Below are positions 5,147 through 30,458 of a DNA stretch of 64,000 bases, one piece after another. Source of the DNA: Polyangiaceae bacterium (GTDB taxonomy: Bacteria; Myxococcota_A; Polyangia; Polyangiales; Polyangiaceae); contig JAXLYR010000002.1 of the NCBI GenBank assembly GCA_046351325.1, positions 560,334 to 624,333 of the forward strand, written 5' to 3'. A program made the translations under genes and the position numbers. Position 1 is the first letter of the stretch, and each line of letters begins with the position of its first letter. A model generated the notes under the pieces. It made no database searches, was not told the DNA's origin, and saw only the letters and a list, made by a program, of their open reading frames with translations.

Positions 5147-5149
5147 TTT

Positions 5150-5164
5150 CGCGTGTCGTACGCG
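5150..5164. terminator. Short GC hairpin between convergent stops
   Basis: CGCGT-GTCGT-ACGCG (5-bp stem) sits exactly between the LysR stop (5144-5146) and the TCA/TGA at 5165-5167. Confidence 0.3.
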
Positions 5165-9189: not shown

Positions 9190-9190
9190 C

Positions 9191-10545: not shown

Positions 10546-11643
10546 TCAATGCGGCGGGTCGATGATGGGCGCGACCGTCGTGACGCCCGCGCCGGCCCAG
10601 GTATGGCCCGCATAGGTGTCGATGAGACAAGCGCCCCCGTCGACGTTGTCGATCTCGATCGCGTAGCCGTTCCCGCTCTTGCGCGAGAAGCCGTAGACCT
10701 TGCCGAGCCAAGCGGCGATCCCGTAGACGCTGCCGTAACCCGTGGCGGTGTCCGAGCAGCTCGGGCGCCGCACGATTTGCCCGCGGACGCTCTTCAGGAC
10801 CGACTGCGTGGTCGACGTCGCGAGCGCGGGCACGTCGAGATCCACCAGCGTGTCGATGTTCGAGCAGCCCGTCGTGTCGGGCGGCGTCGGGCAGTCGCGC
10901 AGCGTGGCGAACCCCACCGGCGAGCCGTTGTTCTCGAAGAACGCGATGTCGCCCGAGAGCTCCCACGTCTTGCCGACGTTCGCCGCGTCGTACGAATGAC
11001 CGTGGCCGTCGTTCGCCGGCACGATGCCGAGCGTCCCGCGCTGCGCGAGGTTGCCGTCTTTGTCGACGCTCCAGAGCTCCCCGGCCGAGTTGCCTGCGAT
11101 GAGCACCTCATCGGTCGGCGACAGCACGCCGCGCGGCGCGAACGTGAGCCCGTAGAAGCGGATCCCCTGGGGGTTGTTGAGCGGGATCGTCTCCGCGCAA
11201 TGCACCGTCGAGCCCTCGATGGTGATTCGATATATGCGTGTCGCAGATATCGCCCAGACCTCACCTGCGTCGTTTACAGCCACGTCAGTCATCGCCGTGG
11301 ACTCACCCGTCCCGCCGATGCAGTCGAAGTCACCGATCTGCGTGAGCGTCAGCGGGCTCACCGACGGGTCGCCTTGAAACAGCGTCGTGTTGTCGTGGAC
11401 GTAGAGCACGCTCGGCGCGGCAGCCCCGCCTGTCCCGCCCCCGCCGTCCGTCATGAAGCTCGAGGAGCTCCCGCCGCTCCCGCCAGCGCCTACCGCAGTC
11501 GCGCCGGCACCTCCGTCTCCACCAGCTCCCCCTGTCGCGCCCGTTCCCCCGCCAGCTCCCCCCGACCCATCGTCGCCGCAGCCCATCCCGACGATGCCGA
11601 AGACCACAGCAAGCCAAAGAGCGTTCGATAAGGGCAAGCGCAT
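10546..11643 (-). CDS. Hypothetical secreted lipoprotein with a Gly-rich linker
   Basis: Start MRLPLSNALWLAVVFGIVGMGCGDDGSGG (signal peptide plus Cys). The upstream part of the six-frame ORF only reads through the tandem repeats. First gene of the operon, 17 bp before the next gene. Confidence 0.6.
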   Translation of the reverse strand: MRLPLSNALWLAVVFGIVGMGCGDDGSGGAGGGTGATGGAGGDGGAGATAVGAGGSGGSSSSFMTDGGGGTGGAAAPSVLYVHDNTTLFQGDPSVSPLTLTQIGDFDCIGGTGESTAMTDVAVNDAGEVWAISATRIYRITIEGSTVHCAETIPLNNPQGIRFYGLTFAPRGVLSPTDEVLIAGNSAGELWSVDKDGNLAQRGTLGIVPANDGHGHSYDAANVGKTWELSGDIAFFENNGSPVGFATLRDCPTPPDTTGCSNIDTLVDLDVPALATSTTQSVLKSVRGQIVRRPSCSDTATGYGSVYGIAAWLGKVYGFSRKSGNGYAIEIDNVDGGACLIDTYAGHTWAGAGVTTVAPIIDPPH

Positions 11644-11654
11644 CCCTGGAGGAT

Positions 11655-11820
11655 AGCCCTTCCCCGACGAGCCCCACGAGTCCTTCGGTCGTGGGGCCCC
11701 CCCTCCAGAGCCCCACGAGTCCTTCGGTCGTGGGGCCCCTCCCTCCAGAGCCCCACGAGTCCTTCGGTCGTGGGGCCCCTCCCTCCAGAGCCCCACGAGT
11801 CCTTCGGTCGTGGGGCCCCG
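11655..11820. repeat. About 4 tandem copies of a 40-bp unit, each carrying a perfect 9-bp-stem hairpin
   Basis: Unit AGCCCCACGAGTCCTTCGGTCGTGGGGCCCCTCCCTCCAG with copies at about 11669, 11709, 11749 and 11789 (last truncated). Hairpin GCCCCACGA-GTCCTTCGG-TCGTGGGGC. No spacers, so not CRISPR. Lies between the divergent starts at 11643 and 11880. Confidence 0.85.
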
Positions 11821-11879
11821 CACGCTGGTGTTCGCTACTGCACTCGACTAAGCCACCGAGGGGCCAGGTCTGGAGAGCA

Positions 11880-14582
11880 ATGACGAGGGACAACGTAACG
11901 TTCGGGCTCGTCGGTGGCGCACGCGCGCCGTTCACGGGCCGCCGCAAAGAGAGTGGGCTGCTCGATCGCGCGCTCGACGCCGTGATCAACCGCGGCGAGA
12001 CGCGGGTCGTCACCCTGCTCGGCTCGCAGGGCACGGGCAAGAGCCGCCTCATCCAAGAGTTCGTGATGCGCCACCGCGCTGGCAATTCGCTCGTCCCGCG
12101 CGTCTATCGCGGCAGCGCGCGCGACGGCGACTCGGCCTACGGCGTGTTCGCGCGCCTGCTCCGCATGCGGTTCGGCCTGGTCGAGGGCATGCCCCTCGAC
12201 GAGCTCAAGAACGCCGTCCGCGAGCAGGTCTCGCGCGTCGTCGGCGATCGCCGCGTCGGCGACGTCGTCTACTACCTCGGCCAATTCCTCGAGGTCCCCT
12301 TCGACGAGAGCCCGCTCACGCGCGCCGTCAGCGACGACCCCGCGCAGGGCCGCTTGCTCCGCCGCGCCGTCGTCAAATCCTTCATCGAGGCCGACGCCGC
12401 GCACAGCCCGCTCTGCCTCGTGTTCGACGACCTTCACGCCGCGCACGCCGACTCGATCGAGCTCCTCCGCTACCTCATCGAGTACCTCTCCGGTCCCGTC
12501 CTCATCGTCTGTGCGGCGCGCCCCGAGCTCCTCGCCCTCGCCGAGGATTGGGCCATCGCCGGCGAGCCTCGCCACGAGACCATCGAGCTCGAGCCCCTCG
12601 CCGACGCCGAGTCTCGCGCCCTCATGTCCGCGCTGCTCGCGCCTTGCGCCGCGCCCGACGGCACCGTCCCCGCGAAGCTCGTTGACAACGCTGTAACCTT
12701 CGCGGCCGGCAACCCCATGCTCCTCGAGCAGATGCTGCGGGTCTATCACGACCGCCGCGTCCTCGAAGAAGAGGCCGCGCTCAGCGACACGCCGCGCTGG
12801 GTCGTCCACCTCGAACGCATCGCGGAGGCCGCGCTCCCGCTCACGATCGAAGACGCGATCCACGCGCGCCTCGCGTCGCTCTCGCAGAACGAGCGTCGCC
12901 TCCTCGAGCTCGCGGCGACCATGGGCAGCGTCTTCTGGACCGCCGGCCTCGTGCCGCTCGTGCGCGCCGGCCGCGAGGCCCCCGACGTCTGGGTGCAGGG
13001 CGTCGGTGACGAGACCGAGAACCTCCGCAAGACGCTCGACGCGCTCGCGCGCCGCGACTTCGTCCTGCGCCTGCCGGACTCTTCGTTCCCCGGCAGCGAC
13101 GAGTACGCCTTCAAACACAACCGCGAGCGTGAGGCCATCCGCGCCCGCACGAGCCCCGCGGCCCAACGTAAGTATCACGCTGTCTTCGCAGATTGGCTGG
13201 ATTTTCAGGCCCACACGCGCTCGAGTGAGGAAGCGATCGTCATGCTCGCCGAGCACCGCGCCGAGGCCGGCGATCTCACCGCCGCAGGCTTCGCTTACCT
13301 CGAGGCCGGCGACGCCGCGCGCGCCGCGTACGCCGCGCAGGCCGCGTGCAACCACTACGAGAAGGGGCTCGAGCTCCTCGGCGACACGAGCGCCTCGCGC
13401 CGCTTGAACGCCCTGCACAACTACGGCGACGTGCTCCTCCTCACGGGGCGCATCGACGACGCGCTCTCCGCCTTCCGCGAGATGCTGACGCTCGCCTACC
13501 AGCTCGACGTGAAGTCGAAGGGTGGGGCCGCGCACAACCGCATCGGCCGCCTCTACCGCGACACCGGCGCCCTCGAGGACGCAGCTCGCTACCTCGAGGC
13601 CGGCATGGCCCTCTTCCTCGCGGCCAAGGACGACCGCGGCGTCGCCTCTTCGATCGACGACATCGGCAAGCTCCAATGGCGCAAGGGCGACTATCAGGCC
13701 GCGCTCGCCTCGCTCCGCGACGGGCTCAGCAGGCGTCGCCGCCTCGGTGATCGCCGTTCGATCGCGCTCAGCCTCAACAACATGGGCATCGTCCTCCAAG
13801 AGACGGGCGAGTTCTCGCAGGCGATCGAGGCCTTCGAGCAGGCGCTCGGCATGCGCCGCGAGATCGGCGATCTGCCCGGCGTCGTCGCGACCCTCAACAA
13901 CCTCGGCACCGTGTTCCAAGATCGCGGCGAGCACGAGAAGGCCCTGCCCCTCTTCGAGGAGGCGCTCGACGTCGCGAAGCAGGTCGGCGATCGCAACAAG
14001 GTCGCCGTCATCCTCACCAACGTCGGCGACACCTTGCACCGCACGGGTCAGGCCGACCGCGCCATCCAGGTCCTCCAGCAGGCCGAAGAGCAGCTCGACG
14101 AGCTCGGCGACAAGCTCGGCCTCGCCGACGCCCTGCGCGCGATGGGTGAGGCCCACCTCGCACGTGGCGAGCTCGTGAAGGCTCGCGAGTGCATCGGCCG
14201 CTGCGTCGATCTCTTCGCCATCGTGCGCAGCAAGGTCCAGCTCGGCATCGCCCTGCGCACCCTCGGTGAGATCACCGCGGCCGGCGGCTGGGGTCCGACC
14301 CACACGCGCGGCGCTCGCGAGTACTTCGCGCGGAGCGTCACCATCTTCGAGCAGACGGGCAACGAGATCGAGCTCGCGCGCACGTTCACCTCGTTCGCGA
14401 AATTCCTCCGCACGCAGGACGACTTCAAGCGCGACGCCTCCGCGCAGGCCGACGCCCAACGGATGGAGGAGTCGGCGCGCTCGATCTTCGCCCGCATGGT
14501 CTCGGCGACGGGCAGCACCGCAGGTCGCCGCACCGCACCGGGCGCGAGCTCGGCGGGCGCACGCAGCCCTGCTCCCAAGTAA
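11880..14582 (+). CDS. STAND-type AAA ATPase (LGSQGTGKSRL) with a long TPR array
   Basis: ATG 11880 is preceded by GGAGAG. Walker A motif, then many TPR-like repeats (…NNMGIVLQETGEFSQAIEAFEQAL…). The in-frame region upstream of 11880 is repeat-derived artefact. Confidence 0.8.
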   Translation: MTRDNVTFGLVGGARAPFTGRRKESGLLDRALDAVINRGETRVVTLLGSQGTGKSRLIQEFVMRHRAGNSLVPRVYRGSARDGDSAYGVFARLLRMRFGLVEGMPLDELKNAVREQVSRVVGDRRVGDVVYYLGQFLEVPFDESPLTRAVSDDPAQGRLLRRAVVKSFIEADAAHSPLCLVFDDLHAAHADSIELLRYLIEYLSGPVLIVCAARPELLALAEDWAIAGEPRHETIELEPLADAESRALMSALLAPCAAPDGTVPAKLVDNAVTFAAGNPMLLEQMLRVYHDRRVLEEEAALSDTPRWVVHLERIAEAALPLTIEDAIHARLASLSQNERRLLELAATMGSVFWTAGLVPLVRAGREAPDVWVQGVGDETENLRKTLDALARRDFVLRLPDSSFPGSDEYAFKHNREREAIRARTSPAAQRKYHAVFADWLDFQAHTRSSEEAIVMLAEHRAEAGDLTAAGFAYLEAGDAARAAYAAQAACNHYEKGLELLGDTSASRRLNALHNYGDVLLLTGRIDDALSAFREMLTLAYQLDVKSKGGAAHNRIGRLYRDTGALEDAARYLEAGMALFLAAKDDRGVASSIDDIGKLQWRKGDYQAALASLRDGLSRRRRLGDRRSIALSLNNMGIVLQETGEFSQAIEAFEQALGMRREIGDLPGVVATLNNLGTVFQDRGEHEKALPLFEEALDVAKQVGDRNKVAVILTNVGDTLHRTGQADRAIQVLQQAEEQLDELGDKLGLADALRAMGEAHLARGELVKARECIGRCVDLFAIVRSKVQLGIALRTLGEITAAGGWGPTHTRGAREYFARSVTIFEQTGNEIELARTFTSFAKFLRTQDDFKRDASAQADAQRMEESARSIFARMVSATGSTAGRRTAPGASSAGARSPAPK

Positions 14583-18208: not shown

Positions 18209-18817
18209 CTACACGACCTTCGCGAGGACCCGCGCGAGCTCGCCGACGAAGGTCCGATCGACGTGCTCCAGGTCGGCCTCGCGCGGCTGGATGAGGAGGC
18301 CCGTCACGAGCGGCCTCGTGATGAACGGCGGCGGCAAGGGCGGCAGCGCGGGCGCGGCGCGCAGGTAGGTCGCGTAGCCGAAGACGGGCTTGTCGTTCGC
18401 GAACGGCGGGAGCGGCGGGCGTGGCCACTCGTCGACCGCGACGTGGCCGTACGTCGGACTGACGACCTTCGCGAGCCCCTCGAGGAGGAGCGCCGCCTTG
18501 CCGAGCTCCAACCCGCCGCGGAACCGCACCACGATCTGATGAGGGATCCACGCCGACGGTAAGGGCCAATCCACCCCGGCGATCATGGACAGCGTTGTAA
18601 CTCGACCGGCGAGCTCCACGCCGAACGCCGTGCGCGCGCCGCCGACCTCACAAGGGCGCCTCGATCGCTCGACGGTCGCGCGCGGGTCGCGGCAGGCTGG
18701 GGCCCAGCTCGCGTCGCCACGCCCGAGGACCTCGAGCACTGCTGCCAAGCGACCAGCGACAGCGTCGACGTCCTCTCGCTTCGGCGCGTCGTAGAGCCGC
18801 ACGGACAGCGACCTCAC
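18209..18817 (-). CDS. Putative cognate immunity protein for the lipase effector
   Basis: GTG start overlaps the effector TGA (GTGA). About 200 aa with no recognisable catalytic motifs. Confidence 0.45.
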   Translation of the reverse strand: MRSLSVRLYDAPKREDVDAVAGRLAAVLEVLGRGDASWAPACRDPRATVERSRRPCEVGGARTAFGVELAGRVTTLSMIAGVDWPLPSAWIPHQIVVRFRGGLELGKAALLLEGLAKVVSPTYGHVAVDEWPRPPLPPFANDKPVFGYATYLRAAPALPPLPPPFITRPLVTGLLIQPREADLEHVDRTFVGELARVLAKVV

Positions 18818-20802
18818 GACGCGTCCTCCGCGGGGAGCCCGTAGAACTCGCGCGCCTCGGCCGAGATGCCCTTCACGAGCTCGTCGCGGACGGTCGCGTC
18901 CACCGCGAGCTCGGCGTGGGGGACCTGGCTCAGCTTGACGAAACGCTCGGAGAGCGGGCTCGAGACGAGCTCGTCCGGCGGACACGCTGACAAGAGTGGA
19001 ACCGCGCCGTCGCCCCAGAACGCCGCGCCCGTGGCGTCGGGTGTAGCGGGCGGGGTCGCGAACGGTGGGGTCGGCAGATACGACCACACGATGGAGTTCG
19101 CGTCGTAGCTCGAGCGGACGTCGAGGCATGCGAGGGTGCCCCCCGACTCGACAGCAATGTCCGAGGTCGCGTACGCGCTCGTCCGCGGGTGCACGTACGC
19201 GCGCGGCTTGATCTTGACCGCCGCTCTGTCCGCGGGCCGCTCGTCGAGCCTCTTCTTGAGCGCGGTCATGGCGTCCGTCTGCGTCTTGCTGTTTGCGACC
19301 GCGCGCCCGGCGGCCTCCGTGAAGGCTGCGGTCAGCGTCTCGGGCGCGGGCATCGATGGATTGAGCGTCAAGCTGTCCTCGAACCTCCGCGCGAGATCGA
19401 GCCCGAGCTTCGACAGGGGACGCAGGTCGACCCGATCGAGTAGGCCTACAAAGATGTCATTGTAAAGCGCGACCGGGTTCCGACTATTGATGAAGTGCTT
19501 GAGGATACGCTCCATAATGGCCTGTATGCGGGCCCCCAATCGATAGGCCTCTCGCGCGACCTTGCCCTCGGGGATCGTCATGAGCCCGATGAACGCCTCG
19601 GCGAACGTCTCCTTGTTCGCGCGCGTCAGCCTCGTGTCCTGCTCGACCGAAGCGGACGAGCGGGCGCGCTCCTCGGCCCGCGCGATCTCCGCGCCGAACA
19701 CCTGGATCCACGGGTTCTCCCCCGAGGTGGGCTTGTCGTGGATGGTCGTCGGGTCGAGCGGCGTCGGCAGCATCACGACATAGCCGCGCTGCGGATACGC
19801 CGTGTGCCACGGGTCGAAGCGCATCCAATGGCGCTCTCGGTCGCAATAGATGGCGTGGGGCATCGACTGGAAGATCGAGGGCATCGCGCGGAGGAACGCG
19901 ACAGTCTCGGCCCGCGTGAGACAGCGCCCCGCGCCGTGGACGAGCAACATATACAAGAGTGTCAGGTAGCCGACGTTCGCGACGCCGCCGCTCGCCGCGG
20001 TCGCGATCGCCGCCGCGATGTTGCCCGCGTCGGTGAGCGCTCCCTGCACGGTCGCGGCGACGTCGTCTTCCTCCTCGGGGTCGACGTGGAAATAGTCCTT
20101 CACGTAGGCGCCGGGGAGGCCATGTTTGAGGTGTACGAACATCTCGGGCGCGCCCAAGATCGGCGAGCCCAAGAGGTGCATCGCGAAGATCTTCGGCTCG
20201 CCGGCGAGCACGCGGCTGTAATAGCGAGCGACGCTACCGCCCATTCCGTGCGCGACGAGGACACATTGGGACTCTCCTGTCTCGGCGAGCACGCGGTCCA
20301 CGTATTGGGAGAGCCGCGCGGCCGACTTGCAGAGGTCGAGTCGCCAGTCGTATCCGAAGCAGTAGACCCTCACCCCGAGATCCAGCTCGGGGTGGTCTTT
20401 GCTCAACCTGTCTGTAAGCGATACGAGCAGATCCTCGAGGAGCAAGTCGTAGAAGGGCAGGACCAGCGCGCCGAGGTCGATGGGCTGATCGATGCGCTCG
20501 ACGGGCGCCTCGGCGTGGTGATCGACGACCTTTTCGGGGTCCGAGCGGTCGTAGAAGTCAGTCGCGGGCACGAGCTCGGTCGGCTCGAGCAGGCGGCCGT
20601 ATTGAATGACGAACGGCCCGCTCGTCGCGATCGTCATGGGGAAGCCGCTCGGGTTCCAGACGAGCTGGTCCGTCCCGGGGTCCTTGAGCCTCGTCATGAA
20701 GAGGTCCGGGATCACCACGACAGGCAGGAGGCGCCGCCGCAGGCCGAGCCGCACGCGCCGCCCCCCGCTCCGCTCGATCGTCCCTGACAAGATGCCGCTC
20801 AT
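18814..20802 (-). CDS. T6SS cargo effector candidate: LCAT/PGAP1-like alpha/beta-hydrolase lipase with Ser to Gly at the canonical nucleophile
   Basis: LCAT-family landmarks FGYDWRLD and LLGSPILGAPEM (cf. LGAPWGGS). Nucleophile elbow reads VLVAHGMGGSV rather than GHSxG. Sits 12 bp overlapped with, or downstream of, vgrG. Confidence 0.6.
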   Translation of the reverse strand: MSGILSGTIERSGGRRVRLGLRRRLLPVVVIPDLFMTRLKDPGTDQLVWNPSGFPMTIATSGPFVIQYGRLLEPTELVPATDFYDRSDPEKVVDHHAEAPVERIDQPIDLGALVLPFYDLLLEDLLVSLTDRLSKDHPELDLGVRVYCFGYDWRLDLCKSAARLSQYVDRVLAETGESQCVLVAHGMGGSVARYYSRVLAGEPKIFAMHLLGSPILGAPEMFVHLKHGLPGAYVKDYFHVDPEEEDDVAATVQGALTDAGNIAAAIATAASGGVANVGYLTLLYMLLVHGAGRCLTRAETVAFLRAMPSIFQSMPHAIYCDRERHWMRFDPWHTAYPQRGYVVMLPTPLDPTTIHDKPTSGENPWIQVFGAEIARAEERARSSASVEQDTRLTRANKETFAEAFIGLMTIPEGKVAREAYRLGARIQAIMERILKHFINSRNPVALYNDIFVGLLDRVDLRPLSKLGLDLARRFEDSLTLNPSMPAPETLTAAFTEAAGRAVANSKTQTDAMTALKKRLDERPADRAAVKIKPRAYVHPRTSAYATSDIAVESGGTLACLDVRSSYDANSIVWSYLPTPPFATPPATPDATGAAFWGDGAVPLLSACPPDELVSSPLSERFVKLSQVPHAELAVDATVRDELVKGISAEAREFYGLPAEDAS

Positions 20803-20814
20803 GGTCGTGCTCCC

Positions 20815-23800
20815 TCAGCTCCGGTAGGTCGTTGGGTCGAGGGCCTTCTCGGTCGCGCCGCCTTGGATGAGCTCGCCGCTCGGCGCGAGGCCCTGATCAC
20901 GCTGGTAGAGCGCGAGCGCTGCGACGTTCGCGGCGTCGGACGCGAGGGCTGCCTGCGCGCCCTTCTTCTCGAGCGGCGGCTCGATGGCCCGCGGGCTCGC
21001 GGGGTAGCCCAAGTTGAGGAGGCGCTGGCGCGTACCCTCCGCGGACTCGAGCGCGGCAAGTTCGTCAACCAGCTTGACGGACCACACGAGCGGCGCGTCG
21101 AAGAGGCGGTCGTCGGGCGCGACTTGATCGACGAAGAGGACCAAGGTCCCGCGCTCCTCCTTCAGGAGATCGCTCGGCACAGTGAGATCCGCGAGGCCGT
21201 CGTCGTCGGTCTCGCCGGCGAAGACCTGCGCGCGGAGCGTGAGCTCGAACCGCGTCTTCTTGAACGGGAGGAGACCGTGGTGGAGCGCGAGCTTGAGGGT
21301 CTCGGTCTTGGGCTCGCTGCTCTCTTCGCTCGCGTCGCTCGCGCTCGCGTTCGCCGAGCCGCTATCGAGCTTCACCGCTGGGGACTGGACGGTCGCGGCG
21401 TTCGCAGCTTTGAGCGTGGCCGAGTCCTTCTCGAGGACGAACGACGTCGACTGCGTCTCGAGCTTGAGCTTGGTGAGCGCCGAGCTCGCGACCCCCTCGT
21501 CGCTGAAGCTGAGCTCCTCGGTCTTGCGGCCCAGGGTGAGTTTGTCGTCCGCGTGGAGGTCGACGGTCTTCGCGGCTCGAATGACAACCTTGTCACTCGA
21601 GAGCGTGATCGTGTCCTTCGTGAGCTCGAGGAAGCTCGCGCCGCACGAGAGGCGCACCGTCGCGCCGTCTTTGTCCGTCAGCGTCGTCAGCTCGATCCGC
21701 TCGGTCGCGGTCGTGAGGACGCTGCCTTGTACGAACGTCGCGAGACGTCGCGCGGTCGGCGCGCCCTGGCCGACCTCGAGCGAGGCGTCGCCGAAGACGA
21801 TCTCGGTCGCGTCGCCCCCGACGGCGCGGTGACGCTCCCTCTTCACGCGCTCGAACGACACGCCGTCGACCTCGCGCGAGGCGCTGCCCCCGACGTGCTC
21901 GTCGAGGTTCTGCGCGACGTCGACGATGCGCCGCCCCTCCACCCTGATGACGGACGCGCCGCCAACAAGCTCGGTCGCGTCGCCGCCGCTCACCGCGAGG
22001 CGCGCGCCCTCCACGTCGCTCTCGAGCGTGCCGACGACGCGCTCTCGTCGGTCGCCGAGCACCGTCGTCGAGTGCGTGTCGGTGACGATCTCCTCGAGGT
22101 CCTTCTGGGCGTGCAAGAAGACCCGCTCGCAGCCCTGCGTGTCGTCGAACGAGAGCTCGTTGAAGCCGTCCCCGGTCGGGATCGACTGCGTGCGGAGCCC
22201 TGATTTGCCGAGCTGCTCGGGCAGCACGAACGGCAGCGGGTGGGTCGCGTTGTAGAGCGCCCCCATCACGAAGGGTCGGTCTGGGTCGCCGCCGACGAAC
22301 GCGACGACGACCTCCATCCCGACGCGCGGGAAGAACTGGAAGCCGAAGCCAGTGCCGGCCCACGGCTGCACGACACGCAGCCAATAGGAGGAGCGCTCGT
22401 CGTAGCGTCCTTGTCGGTCCCAATGGAATTGCACCTTCACCCGGCCGAGCCTGTCGACGAAGAGCGGCTTGCCAGGCGGGCCGACGACGACCGCAGTCTC
22501 GGGCGCGGCGGCGCGCAAGCGCTCAGGCGGCTCTGGACGATAGGCCACGTCCGCGGCGACCCACTCGAACGTGTTCGCGTATCCGGGCGCCCCGGACTGG
22601 GCTCCTGAGTTGACTTCGCAGTAAGCCGAATGGGTCACTCTGACAGGCGTGTAATCGCCCTCTTCGAAGGTTCGCGGCGTGCGGAGCCAATGCACCTTGT
22701 GACCCGGGAGGAGCCGCGGACAGTCGGACGCTCCCGACACGATGCGCGCGCGCCTGCGGTGCTGTTCGAGCGTCGCGCCCGCGAGGTCGGCCGTGAGGTC
22801 GGGTTTGTCATATTCACCGTGGTGCTCGTAGACCTCGAGCAGCGCCTGCGCGGCGAGGGCCGGCGCCTCGTGGAGCGAGCTCTCGGCTTTGTGGATTTGC
22901 AGCGGCTTGCGGTAGTCGCGGTCGCGGATCTCGACGCGCTGGACGGCCGCGGCCCGCCGCGCGACGACCGCTCGGATCGCGCGTGGCGCGCGTGGCTCGG
23001 CGCCGCTCGGTGCGCTCGACTCTACCCAATAGAGCTCGTCGCGCTGCGGAGCAGGCTCGGTTGCGGTCGAGAGCCCAGCCATCGCGTGAATCGGCGCCTC
23101 ATAATGGAGCGGGTCCAATCGCGCTGTGCCGCGGTGGCGCGTCGACCGGAATCGCTCGGCCGGTGCGTCCTCTCCCGCAGCGCCCGTCTCGGTCATATCG
23201 TCGTAGCCGTCGTCCCGAATGACGAGGACATCACAAGGGTGCGAAATCGAGGGTCCGCGGCCCTCGAAGATCCGCGACCTCGGGTCTTCAGGCTCTTCCT
23301 CGAGCGTCGAAAACACCATATCGGCGAACATGTTCGCTTGCCCCGCTTGGGCGTTCGAGCCGCCGGCGAACTGCGCCGACCCACCCGCAGCCGGCCCGGC
23401 CGCCGCACCTGCGCCGCCGCCAATTCCGAGCGCGACGCCCGCGGCGACGACGATGTCGGGCGGCTCGGGGATGGGGTCACCGCGACCGACGTGCTCCTCG
23501 ACGTGTTCGTAATACCAATAGACGCCAGCCTCGGCGAGGAGCCGGGTGACGAACTGCCAATCCGTCTCCTCGTATTGGGTCGTATACGGCCTGCGCTTAT
23601 AGGTCCTGTGGAGCGCGAGTCTGTGCGGTACGCCCGCGGTAGAGAGCACGCGGCTCACCACGTCGTGGAGGTGCATCGCTTGGAAGGACTGGGTGTTCTT
23701 GCGCAGGGTCGCGACGTGGGTGTGCGGGCGTATCTCGAGCTTGAGCACGAGCGGGAGAGCACAGTCGCCCGGTGCGAGCTCGACCGCCGTCACGATGCCG

Positions 23801-24012
23801 CTGCGCGGGACGCCGGCCACGTGCATGGAGAACGTCGCGGCGACGCCGAGCAGGTCGTGCGCGAGCGTGTCCACGTCGGCAGGGTGGTCGACCGGCGCGT
23901 GCCTCAGCTCGATGGTAAAAAGAAAGGGCTCGTTCACGGCCTCCACCCCCGAGATGGAGGTGATGGACCAATCGTCGAGTTGGTACGCGGCGTCGTGGAG
24001 CTCGAGGTGCAT
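20815..24012 (-). CDS. vgrG: VgrG spike protein with a C-terminal extension containing a peptidoglycan-binding-like (PG_binding_1-like) module
   Basis: N-terminal gp27-like region (TDWQFVTRLLAEAGVYWYYEH) and gp5-like beta-helix. C-terminal RQRLLNLGYP…AANVAALALYQRDQGLAPSGELIQGGATEKAL. Confidence 0.8.
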   Translation of the reverse strand: MHLELHDAAYQLDDWSITSISGVEAVNEPFLFTIELRHAPVDHPADVDTLAHDLLGVAATFSMHVAGVPRSGIVTAVELAPGDCALPLVLKLEIRPHTHVATLRKNTQSFQAMHLHDVVSRVLSTAGVPHRLALHRTYKRRPYTTQYEETDWQFVTRLLAEAGVYWYYEHVEEHVGRGDPIPEPPDIVVAAGVALGIGGGAGAAAGPAAGGSAQFAGGSNAQAGQANMFADMVFSTLEEEPEDPRSRIFEGRGPSISHPCDVLVIRDDGYDDMTETGAAGEDAPAERFRSTRHRGTARLDPLHYEAPIHAMAGLSTATEPAPQRDELYWVESSAPSGAEPRAPRAIRAVVARRAAAVQRVEIRDRDYRKPLQIHKAESSLHEAPALAAQALLEVYEHHGEYDKPDLTADLAGATLEQHRRRARIVSGASDCPRLLPGHKVHWLRTPRTFEEGDYTPVRVTHSAYCEVNSGAQSGAPGYANTFEWVAADVAYRPEPPERLRAAAPETAVVVGPPGKPLFVDRLGRVKVQFHWDRQGRYDERSSYWLRVVQPWAGTGFGFQFFPRVGMEVVVAFVGGDPDRPFVMGALYNATHPLPFVLPEQLGKSGLRTQSIPTGDGFNELSFDDTQGCERVFLHAQKDLEEIVTDTHSTTVLGDRRERVVGTLESDVEGARLAVSGGDATELVGGASVIRVEGRRIVDVAQNLDEHVGGSASREVDGVSFERVKRERHRAVGGDATEIVFGDASLEVGQGAPTARRLATFVQGSVLTTATERIELTTLTDKDGATVRLSCGASFLELTKDTITLSSDKVVIRAAKTVDLHADDKLTLGRKTEELSFSDEGVASSALTKLKLETQSTSFVLEKDSATLKAANAATVQSPAVKLDSGSANASASDASEESSEPKTETLKLALHHGLLPFKKTRFELTLRAQVFAGETDDDGLADLTVPSDLLKEERGTLVLFVDQVAPDDRLFDAPLVWSVKLVDELAALESAEGTRQRLLNLGYPASPRAIEPPLEKKGAQAALASDAANVAALALYQRDQGLAPSGELIQGGATEKALDPTTYRS

Positions 24013-24039
24013 GGGAGGGTCCCTTCGCTTACAGTCGTG

Positions 24040-25161
24040 TCAAGGTTTGGCGCGCTCGCGCAGGGCCCTCACGCGGTCGTCGAGCGCGCTCAGGAACCTG
24101 CGCTGCAGGGCGGGGTCCCGCATGAACATCGTGGCGAAATGCACGCGAACGGCCTCTCGCGCGGCGCTCGTGGTGAGGCCGTAGTCAGCCCACGCCTCCG
24201 CCGACAGATCGCCGTCGACGAGCAATTGCGCGCGGATCGCGACGTAGTCGTCGAGGCTGGTTTGTGGCAGCGCGAGCGTCTCGTCAGCGGGGTCGCGCGG
24301 CGCAGTGCTCTCGCGGACTGGAGTCCCAAACATCTCGGCGACGACCGCGCGCGGCGTCGTACCCCCGAATGGCAAGGCCGGGCGCGGCGCGAGCGGCGCG
24401 GCGATCGGGACTGTCGCGTCCGCAAAATCCTGAACTTGCTTTATCGACAATAAAGGAACCCTCGATTCGGTCGTGTTCGTCGACAGGGCACCGAGAGGGG
24501 CCGCGAGCTCGCGCGGCGCCGACAGGCCTCGTTTCGTCGCCAAGGCCATTTCGAGGATCGCGAAGCGAGCGTCGTCGTCGTCGTGCTCCGCGCCGCGCGC
24601 GTGGGCCTGAATCAGCCATCCGTCGCCGAGCCGCGTCTGTGTGGCTCCGCGCGGGAGCGGCTCCGGCACGGGGCGAAGGCGGTAGTTGAGCCATCCGAAG
24701 GGCAGGTGCCTTTGTTCGAAGGGGCGAATCGTCGCCGCGTCGAGCTGCCCTTCTTCGACCCACTCGCGGAGGAGCTCGGCCCACGGGATCGGGCCGCAAT
24801 GGACGAGCGCCTCGAGGCTCAGGCCCGGCTGTGTGGTTGCGACGCGAGAAGCAAAGACGATGTCCACGCGCCCTTCGACCGACTTGGGATCACCCTCGGT
24901 CGAGAACGACAGGCGCGCAGATGGCTGACCCGTGCGCGCCCCGGCCGCGCTCGGACTGCGCGGTGACAGGACGAGCGGCTCTCTCAGGGCGCGCGAGAGC
25001 ACTCCGAGCCAGGTCGAGGCGAGCGTCGCGGCCTGCTCGATGTCGAGGGGGCGCGTATGGCGACTGAGCTCCAGTTGAATCCTGCTCACGGCAGGGGAGT
25101 CGACGGGCGCTCCGAGCCGGTGACAGCCCTTCGTTGGGCGTCTCGCTCGACGAGCTGTCAC
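24040..25161 (-). CDS. Hypothetical protein immediately upstream of vgrG (possible T6SS accessory or adaptor)
   Basis: Ends 27 bp before vgrG. Protein-like composition. No motif that I can name. Confidence 0.4.
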   Translation of the reverse strand: MTARRARRPTKGCHRLGAPVDSPAVSRIQLELSRHTRPLDIEQAATLASTWLGVLSRALREPLVLSPRSPSAAGARTGQPSARLSFSTEGDPKSVEGRVDIVFASRVATTQPGLSLEALVHCGPIPWAELLREWVEEGQLDAATIRPFEQRHLPFGWLNYRLRPVPEPLPRGATQTRLGDGWLIQAHARGAEHDDDDARFAILEMALATKRGLSAPRELAAPLGALSTNTTESRVPLLSIKQVQDFADATVPIAAPLAPRPALPFGGTTPRAVVAEMFGTPVRESTAPRDPADETLALPQTSLDDYVAIRAQLLVDGDLSAEAWADYGLTTSAAREAVRVHFATMFMRDPALQRRFLSALDDRVRALRERAKP

Positions 25162-25229: not shown

Positions 25230-28200
25230 ATGCTCGCTCGTCGCGCGCTTCTCTTGCCGGCTCGTGTGTTCGGACTGGTGGCTTTGCTGTCCAGTTGTGA
25301 AGAGAACGACTCCAATGCGCCCGACGCGCAGCCGAGCGCAGCGGTTGCGGCGCCGAGCGCGATGCCTGCGCCGAGGCCCGAGCTCCAAGCTGTCCCGGAG
25401 GGCGCCCCCATCTTCACGCGCACGGCCGCGGGGTGGACGGCGCTCGGCGCATCCCTGAGCGTGACCGTCGATGACAGTGACGTCAGCCTCACCTCGGAGC
25501 AGGCCACGCTCCATGTGGAGACGGAGCAGATGGGCCGTGGTGAGGACGCAGCGGTCGGCGCCCGTGAGGTGCACGAGAGACCCGACGGGGCGGTCGCGAT
25601 CGCTTACAGCAGTGTAGAGGAAATCTGGCGCGCGAGCGACACCTCCGCGGAGCAGAGCTTTCATTTCGCCGAGGTCCCCGAGGGCGCTGGGGATTGGACG
25701 GTTCGACTCGGCGTTTCAGGGTTGGAGCGCGCCTCCGCAGGGGAGGGGGGCGTCGTCTTCGAGGGGGCTGACGGCGCGTTCTTCCGCTATGGCGTCGCGA
25801 CCTGGGTCGACGCGCTCGGGGCCCGAACGACCATCGTGCCGAGCTACGAGGCAGGTCGCATCGTCCTGCGCGTGCCCGAGGCCTTGCTCGAATCGAGCGC
25901 GTACCCCGCAGTCCTCGACCCGGTCATTACCCCGCTGTCGGAGCTCGACGTGGGGAACCCTGGCGCCGGCCCCAACTTGGATCGCTTCGGCCCTGGAAAG
26001 TGGGCCGCGTGCGGCGCGTCGCGCTGCCTCATCGCGATTCGCCCGACGAGCGGGGTGAGCTTGCTCATTTGGACCGAGCTCGACGGCGGTCCGATCGGCG
26101 GCGGCGCTTATGCCCCAATCCCGACTCCCACGGTCGCTGGCGTCGGCTATGACAGCGGGCGCTTCACCGTCCTCACCCAGCCGTCGACCGCCGTGCTCCA
26201 CCTCACTCGTTATGACGAGAGCGGCGCCACAGTGGGCGGCTTCGACGCGGTCACCACCAACAACACCAAGTTCAACCCGGCCATCAACTGTGGCCACGGC
26301 TTCTGCCTCCTCACCTGGGTACAAGACAGTTTGCCCGGCCCCAGCTTCGCCGCGCGCGTGATGGCGGACGACTCGTTGCCCGACTTCCTCGGCTTCCCAC
26401 TGATCCCCTACACTGTGCGGCGCGTGACGGCAGCGATTGGCCCCACGCAGATGGCGGTCCAATTCGATAGCTCCTCGATCAGCCGCTACAACCACGACAC
26501 GACGTACATCGACTCGGGTGGGTCGTACACGGCAAACCCCGACACGATTGTAGGCACAGTCGTCGCGGGACCGAGCGCGTTCGTGTTCTCGACCGAGAAG
26601 TTCGTCTGGGCGCTCGACTACTCCTGGGTTCCGCTCCCGATGTCGGCGTCCGCTCGAGTCCTTTGCGATGCAGGGAGCGTCGATGGCTTCCAGTACTACT
26701 ATCCTGGGGATACCGGCCTGACCTACGCGAGTGATCGCCTCTTCATGGCGGTGGTGAGGGACCCCGACCCGAACGGCTACGTCCTCGCCAACAATGTCCT
26801 CATTGGTGCACAAGACCCGGCGTTTGTCGCGTGTCTCACCTCGGACGGCTACCAGTCCCTCGCGCAGAACCTCCTCGCCAAACAGAGCCGACCCGTCCTC
26901 GTGACCTCGGGGACCGACGCGCTCGCGCTCTTCCAACACGCCGACATGCGGCTGAAAGAGCTCGACACGGTCCGCGTGCGCCGGTTTGGCGCGACAGGGC
27001 CGACAGGCCCTGAGTACGTCCTCACCCAACACCAGGCTGTCCAATTTCGCCCGGCGCTCGCGTCCGACGGCGCTGGTTACATGGCTGTCTGGACCGAGGC
27101 CCGACTCGGCGGCTTCGCCGTCATGGCGCTGCCGCTCGACGGTCTCGGGAGCCCGACAGCGTCCCCGCGCCTCTTGGATTTCAACCAGGCCGGTCCCATC
27201 GAGACTGGTGCCTTCCCGCAAACCATAGAGCGGACCCCGAGCGTCGCTTGGAATGGCTCGCGCTACATCGTCGGCTGGAGTCGCTTCGACCCTGACGCGC
27301 CTTCGAGCCAATGGGTGGTACGGCTCGACTCGACTGGCAACCCGCTCGATCCGGCGCCCATCCGTGTGAGCCCAATCGACACGGTCACGCGCAACGAGGC
27401 GATCGTCGCCTCGAACGGTGCTGTGGATTTGGTCGGGTTTCACACCTCCACCGGGGAGTTTCGCGTCTATCGCCTCGGCGCGAGCGGCGCCCCGCTCGAG
27501 TCGCAAGGCATCTATCTCGGGGGCGGCGCGGGCACGGCTGTCGACGCCGCGTGGGACGGGACGCGGTTCTTCGTCGCGAGCAGCGCAGGGCTACATCGGC
27601 TGAGCGCGGCGGGGACGCTGCTCGAGGCCAACGTCTTTGGTCCGGCCCTCGCGGGGCCGCGGCTCGCGTGCTCGCCGACGGCGTGCCTCGTCGTCCACGC
27701 GCAGGCGCGTCTCTTCGCTGGCGACTCGAGCGCGATCGGTGGCGCGATCACCTACGCAACGGGGACTCCGAGCGAGTGGTCGGCGACTTACAATGGTGTA
27801 GACTATGTCGTCGCTTACACGGACGCGTCCGGCACGCTGTGGGGGCGCACGCTGTCGTCCGCCGGCGTCCCCCAGGGCTCGAGCCCGTTCCTCGTCCTGA
27901 GCGGACAGAACAGTCAGCCTGCTGTGGCGAGTCGTGGAGACGGCACCGCCATCGTCCTCACTGCCCGCCGCGACGGGACCTCGCCCTCGGGTCGACTCCG
28001 GATCTTCTCGGGGCGCATCGAGGCGTCTCTGTCGCTCGGTCAGGCCTGCTCGACGAACGACGATTGTGGCTCGCAATATTGCGTAGACGGGGTCTGCTGC
28101 AACTCGCTTTGCGGCGCAGGTGCCGCGGATTGCCAGGGCTGCAGCGTCGCGACTGGCGCGCTCACCAATGGGACCTGCAGGGTATATTCCGCGAGCTCGG

Positions 28201-30458
28201 TGTGTCGCGCGGCGACCTCCGAGTGCGACGTCGCTGAGGTTTGCAACGGCATTGTGGGCTCCTGTCCAGCGGACGCGGCCAAGCCAGTCGACACGATCTG
28301 CGGGGCTCCCGTGGCCGGCCCTTGCGACCTCGAGGATCGGTGCGCGGGCACTGTGGGCGCCTCCGCGACGTGCCAAGCGCGGTTCGTTTTGGGGGGGACG
28401 ATCTGCAGAGCCAGCACTGGGCCTTGTGACCCTTCGGAGTCCTGTAGTGGTGGGAACGCCGCGTGCCCGGCTGACACGCTGTTCCCCGCGGGCATGCTTT
28501 GCCGCTCGGCCTCGGGGCCGTGTGACGCGCCAGACTATTGCTCCGGTTCGAGCGGGACGTGCGCGGACGCGGTCCTCGATCCGAGCACGATCTGTCGCGC
28601 AGCGGTCTCTCAATGTGATCTCGACGAGGCGTGCAATGGCGTAGCCAAGACGTGTCCGACCGACGCCGCGCGCCCTGTCGGGTCTGCGTGCAATGGCGCT
28701 CCCGTTGGAGCCTGTGACCTGCAAGACACCTGCTCTGGGACTGTCGGCGCTACGGCTATATGCAACGCGAGGCTCGCCACCAGCGGCACTGTCTGTCGAG
28801 CGGCGGCTGGCACTTGCGACCAGCCGGAGACCTGCACAGGAGCGGCCCCGAGCTGTCCAGTCGACTCCTTCAAGAACACTGTCTGCAGGCCCTCGACGGG
28901 CGTCTGCGATTTGGTCGAGTGGTGCACAGGAGCGGCCCCCGACTGCCCAGCCGACGTCCTCGAGGTCGGGACGCTTTGTCGCGCAGCGGCCGGGGACTGT
29001 GATGTCGCGGAGACCTGTAATGGCCTCTCCGGACAATGCCCTGCCGACGCGCGCTCGGTCGCGGTCTGTAGGCCTTCGGCGGGCCCGTGTGACGAGGCAG
29101 AGTCCTGCGACGGCGTCGCGGTCAGCTGCCCGGCAGACGCGTTCGCACCTGCGAGTCAGGTGTGTAGAACCGCAGCGGGCGCATGTGATCTCGCCGAGGC
29201 CTGCACGGGCTCGTCCGCGACTTGCCCACCTGACGGCCTGCGGGCCTCGGGCGCGCTCTGTCGCGGTTCGACTGGAATTTGCGACGCCGCAGAGACCTGC
29301 AACGGCAGCTCTCCTGCTTGCCCTACGGACTTGTTCGCGCCGCCGACGACAGTATGTCGGCCCTCTCTTGGGGTCTGCGACCTCGAGGAGAAATGCAATG
29401 GCGTGAGTGGCTCGTGTCCCGCGGACGAGGTGGCGTCCCCGACGACAGTTTGTCGGGCCTCAGCAGGGGTCTGCGACCCCGAGGAGAAATGCAATGGCGT
29501 GAGTGTATTGTGCCCTTCAGATTGGCTCTCCACGGCGGCGTGTCGACCATCGGCTGGTCCTTGCGACTACACGGAGTTCTGCAATGGCGCCATGGCCGAC
29601 TGCCCGCCCGACGGGCTCGTCGCGGCCAACACCGTTTGCCGCTCCGCGGCCGGCGCGTGCGACATCGTCGAGCGCTGCGATGGGGCGTCCCCTGCTTGCC
29701 CGAGCGATGGCCACGCGCTCGTGGGCACGCTTTGCAGACCCTCTCTCAGCGAGTGCGACGCGCCCGAGCACTGCGACGGGAGCGCGGTCTGTCCATTGGA
29801 CGCGGCGGTCGCGGCGGGCACTGCCTGTGGGGTTCAGCCGACAGGCAGCTGCGACCTATGGGACCTTTGCACGGGGACAGTCGGCGCCAGCGCATACTGT
29901 CAGGCTCGTCTCGCCTCGAGCGGGACCATTTGCAGGCCGCCCGATGGCCCGTGCGACGCCCTCGAGCTCTGTGACGGCTCGCACGTGAACTGTCCTGTTG
30001 ACAAGCTTGTCATCGATGGAACTGCCTGTGGTGAGGCTGGCGTCTGTTTGGGCGGTATCTGCGACGAGGGGGGTGGTGGTTCAGGCGGCGCGGGTGGCTT
30101 CGGCGGTGGTGGCGCCGGCGGCCTCGGCGGTGGTGGTGCTGGTGGCGGCGCGGGTGGCCTCGGCGGCGGTGGAGCTGGCGGTCTCGGCGGTGGCGGTGGT
30201 CTCGGCGGCTCGGGTGGCTCCCCAACGGGAGGATCGAGTCTGGGTGGTGGTGGAGACGGGACCGCAGGTACTGGTGGCGCGAACTCGGGTGGTGGTGGAG
30301 ACGAGCCGACCGGCGGAATGGGCGGCGGCGGTGGTGGTGGACAGGGTTGCGACTGTCGCGCGAGCCCGACGAGCTCCGCGCTCGGCGCCCCCTATTGGGT
30401 GCTCGCATTGGCGCTCTTGCTCTCGCGGCGGAAGGGCACTCGCTCGGACAACACCTAG
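25230..30458 (+). CDS. Giant (about 1742 aa) lipoprotein: N-terminal beta-rich region, about 20 tandem Cys-rich repeats, Gly-rich spacer, MYXO-CTERM sorting tail
   Basis: GGAGGG sits 6 nt before ATG 25230. Signal LLSSCEEN. Repeats of type T.CR...G.CD..E.C.G....CP.D. Ends …GGGQGCDCRASPTSSALGAPYWVLALALLLSRRKG. Confidence 0.8.
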   Translation: MLARRALLLPARVFGLVALLSSCEENDSNAPDAQPSAAVAAPSAMPAPRPELQAVPEGAPIFTRTAAGWTALGASLSVTVDDSDVSLTSEQATLHVETEQMGRGEDAAVGAREVHERPDGAVAIAYSSVEEIWRASDTSAEQSFHFAEVPEGAGDWTVRLGVSGLERASAGEGGVVFEGADGAFFRYGVATWVDALGARTTIVPSYEAGRIVLRVPEALLESSAYPAVLDPVITPLSELDVGNPGAGPNLDRFGPGKWAACGASRCLIAIRPTSGVSLLIWTELDGGPIGGGAYAPIPTPTVAGVGYDSGRFTVLTQPSTAVLHLTRYDESGATVGGFDAVTTNNTKFNPAINCGHGFCLLTWVQDSLPGPSFAARVMADDSLPDFLGFPLIPYTVRRVTAAIGPTQMAVQFDSSSISRYNHDTTYIDSGGSYTANPDTIVGTVVAGPSAFVFSTEKFVWALDYSWVPLPMSASARVLCDAGSVDGFQYYYPGDTGLTYASDRLFMAVVRDPDPNGYVLANNVLIGAQDPAFVACLTSDGYQSLAQNLLAKQSRPVLVTSGTDALALFQHADMRLKELDTVRVRRFGATGPTGPEYVLTQHQAVQFRPALASDGAGYMAVWTEARLGGFAVMALPLDGLGSPTASPRLLDFNQAGPIETGAFPQTIERTPSVAWNGSRYIVGWSRFDPDAPSSQWVVRLDSTGNPLDPAPIRVSPIDTVTRNEAIVASNGAVDLVGFHTSTGEFRVYRLGASGAPLESQGIYLGGGAGTAVDAAWDGTRFFVASSAGLHRLSAAGTLLEANVFGPALAGPRLACSPTACLVVHAQARLFAGDSSAIGGAITYATGTPSEWSATYNGVDYVVAYTDASGTLWGRTLSSAGVPQGSSPFLVLSGQNSQPAVASRGDGTAIVLTARRDGTSPSGRLRIFSGRIEASLSLGQACSTNDDCGSQYCVDGVCCNSLCGAGAADCQGCSVATGALTNGTCRVYSASSVCRAATSECDVAEVCNGIVGSCPADAAKPVDTICGAPVAGPCDLEDRCAGTVGASATCQARFVLGGTICRASTGPCDPSESCSGGNAACPADTLFPAGMLCRSASGPCDAPDYCSGSSGTCADAVLDPSTICRAAVSQCDLDEACNGVAKTCPTDAARPVGSACNGAPVGACDLQDTCSGTVGATAICNARLATSGTVCRAAAGTCDQPETCTGAAPSCPVDSFKNTVCRPSTGVCDLVEWCTGAAPDCPADVLEVGTLCRAAAGDCDVAETCNGLSGQCPADARSVAVCRPSAGPCDEAESCDGVAVSCPADAFAPASQVCRTAAGACDLAEACTGSSATCPPDGLRASGALCRGSTGICDAAETCNGSSPACPTDLFAPPTTVCRPSLGVCDLEEKCNGVSGSCPADEVASPTTVCRASAGVCDPEEKCNGVSVLCPSDWLSTAACRPSAGPCDYTEFCNGAMADCPPDGLVAANTVCRSAAGACDIVERCDGASPACPSDGHALVGTLCRPSLSECDAPEHCDGSAVCPLDAAVAAGTACGVQPTGSCDLWDLCTGTVGASAYCQARLASSGTICRPPDGPCDALELCDGSHVNCPVDKLVIDGTACGEAGVCLGGICDEGGGGSGGAGGFGGGGAGGLGGGGAGGGAGGLGGGGAGGLGGGGGLGGSGGSPTGGSSLGGGGDGTAGTGGANSGGGGDEPTGGMGGGGGGGQGCDCRASPTSSALGAPYWVLALALLLSRRKGTRSDNT

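Follow-up and report, generated by a model that had tools for sequence, protein, structure and literature searches.

An orphan vgrG island in a Polyangiaceae genome with a predicted Tle4-like effector that lacks the serine nucleophile and a predicted Imm52-family immunity protein

Organization of the locus

The region described here lies on the minus strand of a 64,000-nucleotide stretch of DNA (the window) from a metagenome-assembled genome (MAG) of the bacterial family Polyangiaceae (assembly GCA_046351325.1, contig JAXLYR010000002.1). It is fairly labeled an orphan vgrG island, in which genes for VgrG, the spike protein in a type VI secretion system (T6SS), for an effector and for an immunity protein stand together without a T6SS core gene nearby. 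Four consecutive, co-directional open reading frames (ORFs) are found at positions 25161-18209 (NCBI locus tags U0271_09390 to 09405); these are a hypothetical gene, vgrG, the gene of a predicted alpha/beta-hydrolase effector, and a gene for a 202-residue predicted immunity protein (Table 1). The effector resembles the T6SS effector Tle4, but has glycine in place of the serine nucleophile and aspartate in place of a conserved oxyanion-loop glycine.

The upstream gene is separated from vgrG by 27 nucleotides (24013-24039), and the GTG start of the 202-codon gene overlaps the stop codon of the hydrolase gene by four nucleotides, which read GTGA. The G+C content at third codon positions (GC3) is 0.87-0.89 for vgrG, the effector gene and the 202-codon gene (0.89 for the last), which marks all three as clearly coding. 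A model had earlier annotated the window from its letters alone (the sequence-only reading) and proposed an orphan vgrG cargo island with genes packed on one strand, a 27-bp gap before vgrG, an overlap of the lipase stop with a downstream GTG, and no other T6SS core genes within 64 kb. The ORFs, the gap and the overlap occur where that reading placed them. Moreover, a Pfam scan of window ORFs picked by codon-position G+C brought up no T6SS core gene. Similarly, no DUF4280/PAAR-like gene is present anywhere in the window, and no tRNAs or integrases were found in it. Its composition, at approximately 68% G+C, continues without a break.

Table 1. Features of the island and of its protein products, in window positions
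Feature	Position	Strand	Length or residues	Basis or remark
Upstream hypothetical gene	24040..25089	-	349 aa	Start at GTG 25089, from GC3 profile and NCBI start
vgrG/tssI	20815..24012	-	1065 aa	Pfam and TIGRFAM models; NCBI name TssI/VgrG
Predicted Tle4/LCAT-fold alpha/beta-hydrolase effector	18814..20802	-	662 aa	PF02450, Tle4 profile, AF2/Foldseek
Predicted divergent Imm52-family immunity gene	18209..18817	-	202 aa	GTG start; profile of cassette homologues
VgrG gp27-like domain			Split at residues ~175-340	Low-complexity insert of ~165 aa (22996-23490)
VgrG gp5 OB fold			Residues 520-587	
VgrG gp5 C-terminal beta-helix			Residues 604-714	
VgrG prolonged beta-helical spike	21367..21870	-	Residues 715-882	Aligns with 16 related VgrGs; strand-rich repeats
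VgrG beta-sandwich	21058..21297	-	Residues 906-985	Conserved in cassette VgrGs
VgrG degenerate PG_binding_1-like module	20818..21045	-	Residues 990-1065	RLLNLGY ... ALALYQRDQGLAPSGE; loop insertion of ~12 residues
Effector D33	20704-20706	-	Residue 33	GAC; replaces conserved oxyanion-loop Gly
Effector H185-G186	20245-20250	-	Residues 185-186	G186 codon GGA at nucleophile position
Effector D598	19009-19011	-	Residue 598	Putative catalytic Asp in GDGAVP
Effector H629	18916-18918	-	Residue 629	Putative catalytic His, after cap

Related cassettes in Myxococcota

At least 20 loci share the gene order VgrG, hydrolase and small gene, 17 of them from genomes (L007-L023) and three from metagenomes (L027-L029); they come from Polyangiaceae, Myxococcaceae, Sandaracinaceae and other Myxococcota. 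The VgrGs of the 17 genome loci are 1042-1099 residues long and carry a homologous C-terminal extension, followed by the effector. Approximately seven related cassettes have a gene of the PAAR-like family DUF4280 at the position occupied in the window by the upstream gene, and the context of P0002, the nearest database homologue of the effector, reads DUF4280-VgrG-effector-Imm52. An Imm52-like gene lies directly after the effector in most related cassettes whose contig reaches beyond it.

Two candidates from related loci were set aside. The apparently separate 263-residue gene in locus L001 reflects an assembly frameshift in vgrG, and the same sequence is in frame in L002-L006. A functional link to protein kinase genes near related cassettes was also rejected, given that Ser/Thr kinases are ubiquitous in myxobacteria.

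The effector is a predicted relative of Tle4

The effector is, by profile comparison and structural modeling, a predicted relative of the Tle4 family, with an alpha/beta-hydrolase fold and a very large cap insertion. It matches PF02450 (LCAT) with an E value of 9.7e-7 (28.8 bits, cutoff 21), through residues 147-228 only. A profile of the effector family matches Pseudomonas aeruginosa Tle4 (4r1d_A) with an E value of 1.8e-17; all signature motifs align, and THSMGG of Tle4 is placed on AHGMGG. The AlphaFold2 (AF2) model, built from a 30-sequence alignment, has a predicted template modeling score (pTM) of 0.82, and its best Foldseek match is again 4r1d_A (E 3.8e-10), followed, in a second tier, by lysosomal phospholipase A2 (LPLA2) and LCAT (4x95 and 5bv7). 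Exhaustive HMMER search for the effector family retrieved 48 cluster representatives with E values below 1e-30 and 1427 with E values up to 1e-3, and those relatives that could be placed in genomes belong almost entirely to Myxococcota. No Pfam match to Tox-REase-5, the usual partner of Imm52, is present inside the effector.

Two motifs in the cap, Y447-x-D449...G453..D456...R461 and S564..D567-x-N569 (window positions ~19096-19464), are invariant in members with and without the serine. They could represent a second functional site, or an interface with VgrG or with membranes.

A missing serine and a coupled aspartate

The nucleophile elbow of the window effector reads AHGMGG, in contrast to (A/T)HSMGG in Tle4 and most relatives, and the residues before the oxyanion hole read IPD, ending in Asp33, in contrast to VPG in relatives. 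Because the serine nucleophile is missing, the protein cannot be a canonical serine lipase. The sequence-only reading had called it a lipase-like effector; this is borne out by the predicted Tle4/LCAT fold, but not by the active site, in which Gly186 takes the place of the serine and Asp33 is found. The same pair of changes is seen in P0002, whose assemblies from six independent samples are identical, so the loss of serine is neither an error nor a one-off event.

The other putative catalytic residues are conserved. His185, Asp598 and His629 are invariant in 30 family sequences, irrespective of whether these carry the serine. At positions 33 and 186, the 54 full-length members have Gly/Ser (32), Asp/Gly (11), Gly/Gly (six), Gly/Cys (two), Glu/Gly (one) or Gly/Glu (one). 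Among 107 representatives in which both motifs are readable, Asp or Glu at position 33 is accompanied by Gly186 in 15 of 15 cases, and is found in none of the 88 with Ser or Cys at position 186. The next strongest covarying column is position 600, two residues past the catalytic Asp. The Gly/Glu state occurs in the effector of L019 (L019:7060-8901), whose elbow reads AHEMGG and which keeps VgrG and Imm52 neighbors. P0025 and P0049, of the same effector family, have Cys at the nucleophile position.

In alpha/beta hydrolases, the oxyanion loop that follows strand beta3 packs against the nucleophile elbow. From this general topology, the carboxylate of Asp33 should sit where the serine hydroxyl was, next to His629. 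The side chain at position 33 might fit only once the side chain at position 186 has been removed, and this would explain why the coupling is one-way, such that acidic residues never occur with Ser and Gly/Gly intermediates exist.

Recurrence and selection

Neighbor-joining trees were constructed without positions 33 and 186, and state changes were counted by parsimony. In all 100 bootstraps, the loss of Ser/Cys requires 10-13 steps and the gain of Asp/Glu requires 6-8. Two sister pairs are recovered in 100% of replicates: P0014 (Asp/Gly) with L007 (Gly/Ser), which are 62% identical, and L012 with P0008. In 14 of 15 serine-bearing loci the serine is encoded by AGC, so that Ser to Gly (AGC to GGC) and Gly to Asp (GGC to GAC) are each a single transition.

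The ratio of nonsynonymous to synonymous substitution rates (dN/dS) is 0.27 (L015/L017) and 0.12 (L010/L011) for pairs of genes lacking the serine, and 0.26-0.30 for serine-bearing pairs. Thus, the serine-less genes are not decaying and are under purifying selection. They also retain their VgrG and immunity neighbors. In view of this selection and of the partners kept, the window effector is likely to be a functional toxin still. Some genomes carry more than one cassette: MAG JBPOHC01 has two paralogous copies, L010 (Asp/Gly) and L015 (Gly/Gly), and MAG JAEUKH01 also has two (L009 and L018).

The retained His185, Asp598 and His629 favor continued catalysis. The most likely mechanism, which we put forward tentatively and at less than even chances, is a remodeled site in which the Asp33 carboxylate, together with His629/Asp598, takes the part of nucleophile or general base. 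A noncatalytic toxin is nearly as likely, and the rest of the probability falls to other outcomes. As a rival explanation, the window effector would be a pseudoenzyme in which the loss of Ser186 ended hydrolysis and Asp33 is only a cavity filler; the protein might kill by binding or sequestering lipids or by inserting into membranes through its large cap, or it might be a nontoxic passenger. Glycine at the nucleophile elbow is a classic mark of inactive alpha/beta-hydrolase homologues, such as the neuroligins, and six relatives have neither the serine nor Asp/Glu (Gly/Gly). However, the invariance of His185, Asp598 and His629 in serine-less members is unexpected if catalysis was abandoned. Also, Asp/Glu33 is strictly and recurrently coupled to Gly186, with a third active-site position that covaries, and the serine-less copies are maintained by purifying selection together with their immunity genes. 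We judge a pseudoenzyme to be somewhat less likely than not. The broader proposition, that Tle4-like effectors throughout the Myxococcota have repeatedly swapped the serine nucleophile for an oxyanion-loop carboxylate (Ser186Gly plus Gly33Asp/Glu), is possible, although we consider it rather doubtful.

The downstream gene encodes a predicted Imm52-like protein

The 202-residue protein has no Pfam match even at an E value of 10, PF15579 (Imm52) included. In contrast, PF15579 is matched by 12 of 14 aligned proteins (13 cassette-linked homologues and the window copy, which is itself unmatched), with a best E value of 3.1e-19. A hidden Markov model (HMM) of the 13 homologues scores the window protein at 49.3 bits, compared with a maximum of 9.6 for 1000 shuffled sequences, and tblastn ties it to the immunity ORFs of L007, L010, L011 and L013. 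These profile scores point to a predicted divergent member of the Imm52 immunity family, which agrees with the overlapping immunity gene that had been proposed from the sequence.

No signal peptide or lipobox is present in the N-termini of the window protein and its aligned homologues. Tle1-4 effectors usually have a GxSxG motif and a Ser-His-Asp triad and act in the periplasm, where their immunity (Tli) proteins are also located (PMC9860674). By prediction, the window pair departs from this periplasmic Tli-type immunity. An Imm52 partner without a signal peptide suggests that toxin and immunity protein come together on the cytoplasmic side, where the target of the toxin probably lies as well. 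Imm52 is cataloged as the immunity partner of Tox-REase-5 nucleases (PMC3482391), and Imm52 proteins of Burkholderia gladioli were tested as immunity to Tox-REase-5 (bioRxiv 10.1101/835710). Pairing of Imm52 with a lipase-fold effector is not reported in the Imm52 literature that was searched.

Alternately, the 202-residue protein might be a chaperone or loading adaptor for the effector. It is predicted to be cytoplasmic, as most lipase immunity proteins are not (PMC9860674), and the B. gladioli Imm52 proteins protected only when fused to the toxin or stoichiometric with it (bioRxiv 10.1101/835710). However, a gene immediately downstream with a 4-nucleotide start/stop overlap has the standard layout of a toxin-immunity pair, and Imm52 is a cataloged immunity family (PMC3482391). 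T6SS adaptors are usually encoded upstream of the effector and come from the families DUF4123, DUF1795 and DUF2169; the 202-residue protein matches none of the three. A chaperone role is thus improbable, and immunity is the preferred function.

VgrG and its C-terminal extension

The vgrG product matches the Pfam models Phage_GPD (E 2.6e-45, 155 bits), Phage_base_V (2.6e-17, 63 bits) and Gp5_trimer_C (3e-23, 82 bits), and scores 391.9 bits on TIGR03361 (cutoff 186.35) and 278 bits on TIGR01646. These matches indicate a full-length T6SS VgrG/TssI, as the sequence-only reading had it. The insert that splits its gp27-like domain is rich in Gly, Ala and Pro, and alignments of related VgrGs break there, with tblastn segments split at approximately residues 170 and 360.

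Beyond the gp5 beta-helix, VgrG has a C-terminal extension of approximately 350 residues, in which further beta-helix is followed by an acidic linker, then by a beta-sandwich and last by a terminal module. The beta-sandwich is possibly transthyretin-like, and gives weak profile matches to the C-terminal structure of P. aeruginosa VgrG2b (6h56; E 0.17 and 0.78). The terminal module consists of approximately 60-75 residues with the consensus GAR-x-RLRNLGY...LDP-x-T-x-x-AL-x-x-FQ-x-D-x-x-L-x-x-TG-x-LD-x-AT.

PF01471 (PG_binding_1) is matched by 15 of 17 homologous VgrG extensions, with a best E value of 6.8e-10. The window module on its own scores below the Pfam gathering threshold (E 0.038, 14.6 bits, cutoff 23) and covers 26 of 57 profile positions; it is the most degenerate of the aligned set. 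An HMM of 14 homologous modules nevertheless gives it 39.7 bits, against 17.6 for the best of 1000 shuffles. The family profile has marginal matches (E 0.02-0.2) to peptidoglycan-binding domains of known structure (4xxt, 4c2g (CtpB), 5tv7 and 4lpq), and a single-sequence AF2 model of the window module has a mean predicted local distance difference test score (pLDDT) of 36. By its profile relationships, the module is homologous to PG_binding_1 domains. The C-terminal peptide quoted in the sequence-only reading is present in VgrG, and the PG_binding_1-like module claimed there is thus upheld through its relatives, but the window copy itself falls short of the PF01471 cutoff.

A metagenome scan with the module revealed 16 more loci (L030-L045), in which the sandwich and PG_binding_1 pair lies outside VgrG. 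Most encode stand-alone proteins of approximately 210 residues, in which a LysM domain precedes the beta-sandwich and the PG_binding_1-like domain (11 aligned). The N-terminal part is assigned to LysM by profile matches to 4uz2 (6.8e-5), the phage tail-tube initiator 9g8s_T (8.4e-4) and MltD (1e0g). The stand-alone proteins have no signal peptides; examples are L041:1732-2424, L043:4237-4908 and L042:4840-5583. The L042 gene adjoins VgrG and a Het-C/phospholipase-C-like gene, the L043 gene adjoins a pesticin-like/PG_binding_1/C39-like gene, and in L040 and L035 such genes occur in tandem. These proteins may be an undescribed family of spike accessories or adaptors. The fusion to LysM argues for a cell-wall-related role of the sandwich and PG_binding_1 pair.

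The VgrG tip is probably a spike accessory, for which cargo docking and peptidoglycan gripping are about equally likely. The sequence-only reading suggested that the module could anchor the spike in prey peptidoglycan. In a fuller form of this idea, the module would bind the peptidoglycan and anchor or orient the spike once it has penetrated, and would not dock the effector. In keeping with this proposal, the module is homologous to PF01471 domains, the same pair is joined elsewhere to an N-terminal LysM, which is a genuine peptidoglycan binder, and Vibrio cholerae VgrG3 carries a peptidoglycan-binding domain (PMC3069435). However, an LCAT/Tle4-like gene comes next in every VgrG-fused copy (L007-L023, L027-L029) that is readable downstream, although this linkage is partly built into the sampling because the loci were recovered mostly through the effector. 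Also, the transthyretin-like (TTR) C-terminal extension of VgrG1 from enteroaggregative Escherichia coli (EAEC) is the docking site of the effector Tle1 (PMC9860674). Furthermore, the PG_binding_1 fold serves protein-protein contacts as well, as in the prodomain of matrix metalloproteinases (to which there are weak profile matches), and the window module is the most degenerate of its set. Taken together, an anchor that excludes docking seems less probable.

VgrG domains are shared with phage gpD/gp5, and the LysM-bearing relatives of the tip module resemble phage tail-tube initiator proteins (9g8s_T), so the spike might instead belong to a phage tail or to an extracellular contractile injection system. 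This is highly improbable, however, because the scores on the T6SS-specific models TIGR03361 and TIGR01646 are far above cutoffs, and genes for phage, sheath, tube or baseplate proteins were found neither among the scanned window ORFs nor in the sequences that flank related loci. The protein is better explained as the T6SS spike VgrG.

The upstream gene

The ORF upstream of vgrG could start at 25161, which would give 373 residues, or at the NCBI start, GTG 25089, which gives 349. Its coding GC3 signal begins only near 25140. This profile and the NCBI call imply that the earlier upper boundary is probably 72 nucleotides too far upstream and that GTG 25089 is most likely the start.

No Pfam or NCBIfam model matches the upstream protein, including those of the adaptor families DUF4123, DUF1795, DUF2169 and PAAR/DUF4280. 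The sequences on either side of the 17 related genome cassettes (L007-L023) contain no homologue, and no relatives were found in the metagenome scan. The suggestion in the sequence-only reading that this gene encodes an adaptor is not borne out. The sole similarity of the protein lies in residues 147-206 (373-residue numbering), which resemble a C-terminal stretch of 60 residues in the cassette's Imm52-like proteins (hhalign probability 91%, E 1.1e-6, 60 columns); it scores 19.2 bits on the Imm52-like HMM, compared with 16.1 for the best of 1000 shuffles. Read from the NCBI start (MSRIQLEL...), its N-terminus also looks by eye like that of these Imm52-like proteins. The gene may be a second, decayed or orphan, Imm52-like gene that is highly diverged and has an unrelated C-terminal extension of approximately 165 residues.

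Other features of the window

A protein of approximately 1740 residues is transcribed divergently from the island (25230-30458, plus strand). It has a lipoprotein-type signal (LLSSC), a Gly-rich tail and at least 11 disintegrin-like Cys-rich repeats (PF00200, 2.1e-79). With the mechanically assigned start at 25134 it would overlap the upstream gene, and this start is probably incorrect.

The run hpf-ptsN-hprK-rapZ-ptsP is found at 46238-51989 on the plus strand, encoding Hpf (S30AE), a PTS EIIA-Ntr-like protein, HPr kinase, RapZ and PtsP/EI; the run has no connection with the cargo operon. Such runs are typical of rpoN-linked regulatory clusters. Two STAND-like regulators are also present, one of 1400 residues with Ser/Thr kinase and AAA_16 domains (5062-9261, minus strand) and one of 1041 residues with AAA_16 and TPR domains (11457-14582, plus strand). 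Besides Ser/Thr kinases with AAA_16 and AAA_16-TPR, among which are these two, the Pfam matches of the ORFs scanned across the window include NuoL-like, LysR, adenine deaminase and sigma-54 activator proteins, as well as CAP, papain-like peptidase, spermidine synthase and terpene synthase.

Discussion

The region is probably an accessory, or orphan, T6SS cargo operon of a cassette type that is conserved in Myxococcota. By analogy with VgrG1-TTR/Tle1 of EAEC and with Tle/Tli pairs, the VgrG trimer would sit at the tip of the Hcp tube of a T6SS whose genes lie elsewhere in the genome. The hydrolase would ride on the C-terminal extension of the spike and be fired into neighboring cells, and the Imm52-like protein would neutralize the toxin in the cytoplasm of the producing cell and of its kin, a location suggested by its lack of a signal peptide. 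T6SS genes have been reported in Polyangiales (PMC10196010).

Several points weigh against this interpretation or parts of it. T6SS core genes are not visible within the 64-kb window, and the window copies of Imm52 and PG_binding_1 each fail the Pfam thresholds. The neighbor-joining trees are based on sequences that are approximately 35% identical, and their deep branches cannot be relied on; recombination among paralogues could also make the switches look more numerous than they are. The closeness of Asp33 to Gly186 and His629 is derived from nothing more specific than general alpha/beta-hydrolase topology, and the six Gly/Gly members imply that the protein can be retained without Asp33.

The vgrG-effector-immunity island is in itself an ordinary, known kind of system. 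Three of its aspects were not found in the literature searched: a phylum-wide cassette that joins a VgrG tip of beta-sandwich and PG_binding_1-like module to a Tle4-like toxin; a lipase-fold toxin with a predicted cytoplasmic Imm52 protein, a family known there only as a nuclease partner; and a recurrent loss of the catalytic serine that is evolutionarily tied to the gain of a neighboring aspartate and takes place under purifying selection. If the serine-less forms are active, they would represent a natural relocation of the nucleophile in one of the most studied enzyme folds, and would escape serine-hydrolase probes as well as annotation rules that call for GxSxG. If they are inactive yet toxic, the effector would be a nonenzymatic toxin with a lipase fold.

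Comparison with known systems

A close parallel in layout is VgrG1-Tle1 of EAEC, in which a C-terminal beta-sandwich extension of VgrG is likewise encoded directly upstream of a Tle-type effector, and extension and effector co-occur. The window VgrG differs by its extra, terminal PG_binding_1-like module, and docking is proposed here by analogy. Also, EAEC Tle1 is a DUF2235 protein, whereas the window effector is predicted to be Tle4-like. V. cholerae VgrG3 (PMC3069435) similarly has a C-terminal domain of a peptidoglycan-binding type. In contrast to the window VgrG, which has no fused enzyme and whose toxin is a separate gene, the VgrG3 extension is itself an effector that degrades peptidoglycan.

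The effector shares with P. aeruginosa Tle4 (TplE, PA1510; 4r1d), the partner of Tli4, the motifs PG-x-MGT-x-L, GY(D/N)W, H-S-MGG-LVAR and GD-x-TVP, a large cap insertion, and the status of a T6SS cargo encoded near vgrG. However, identity is only approximately 13% in structural alignment, and the window effector has Gly for the catalytic Ser and Asp for the conserved oxyanion-loop Gly. Tli4 is periplasmic, whereas the Imm52-like partner in the window is predicted to be cytoplasmic. Human LCAT and lysosomal phospholipase A2 (PF02450) are related through the Pfam match, the fold matches (4x95, 5bv7) and a large cap between the nucleophile and the Asp/His pair, but only residues 147-228 of the window effector match and its nucleophile serine is absent. 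In pairs of Imm52 and Tox-REase-5 (Zhang et al. 2012; Tse/Tsi of B. gladioli), an immunity gene of the same family directly follows a T6SS effector gene; the toxin there is a nuclease with a restriction-endonuclease fold, whereas the toxin of the window is a predicted alpha/beta-hydrolase.

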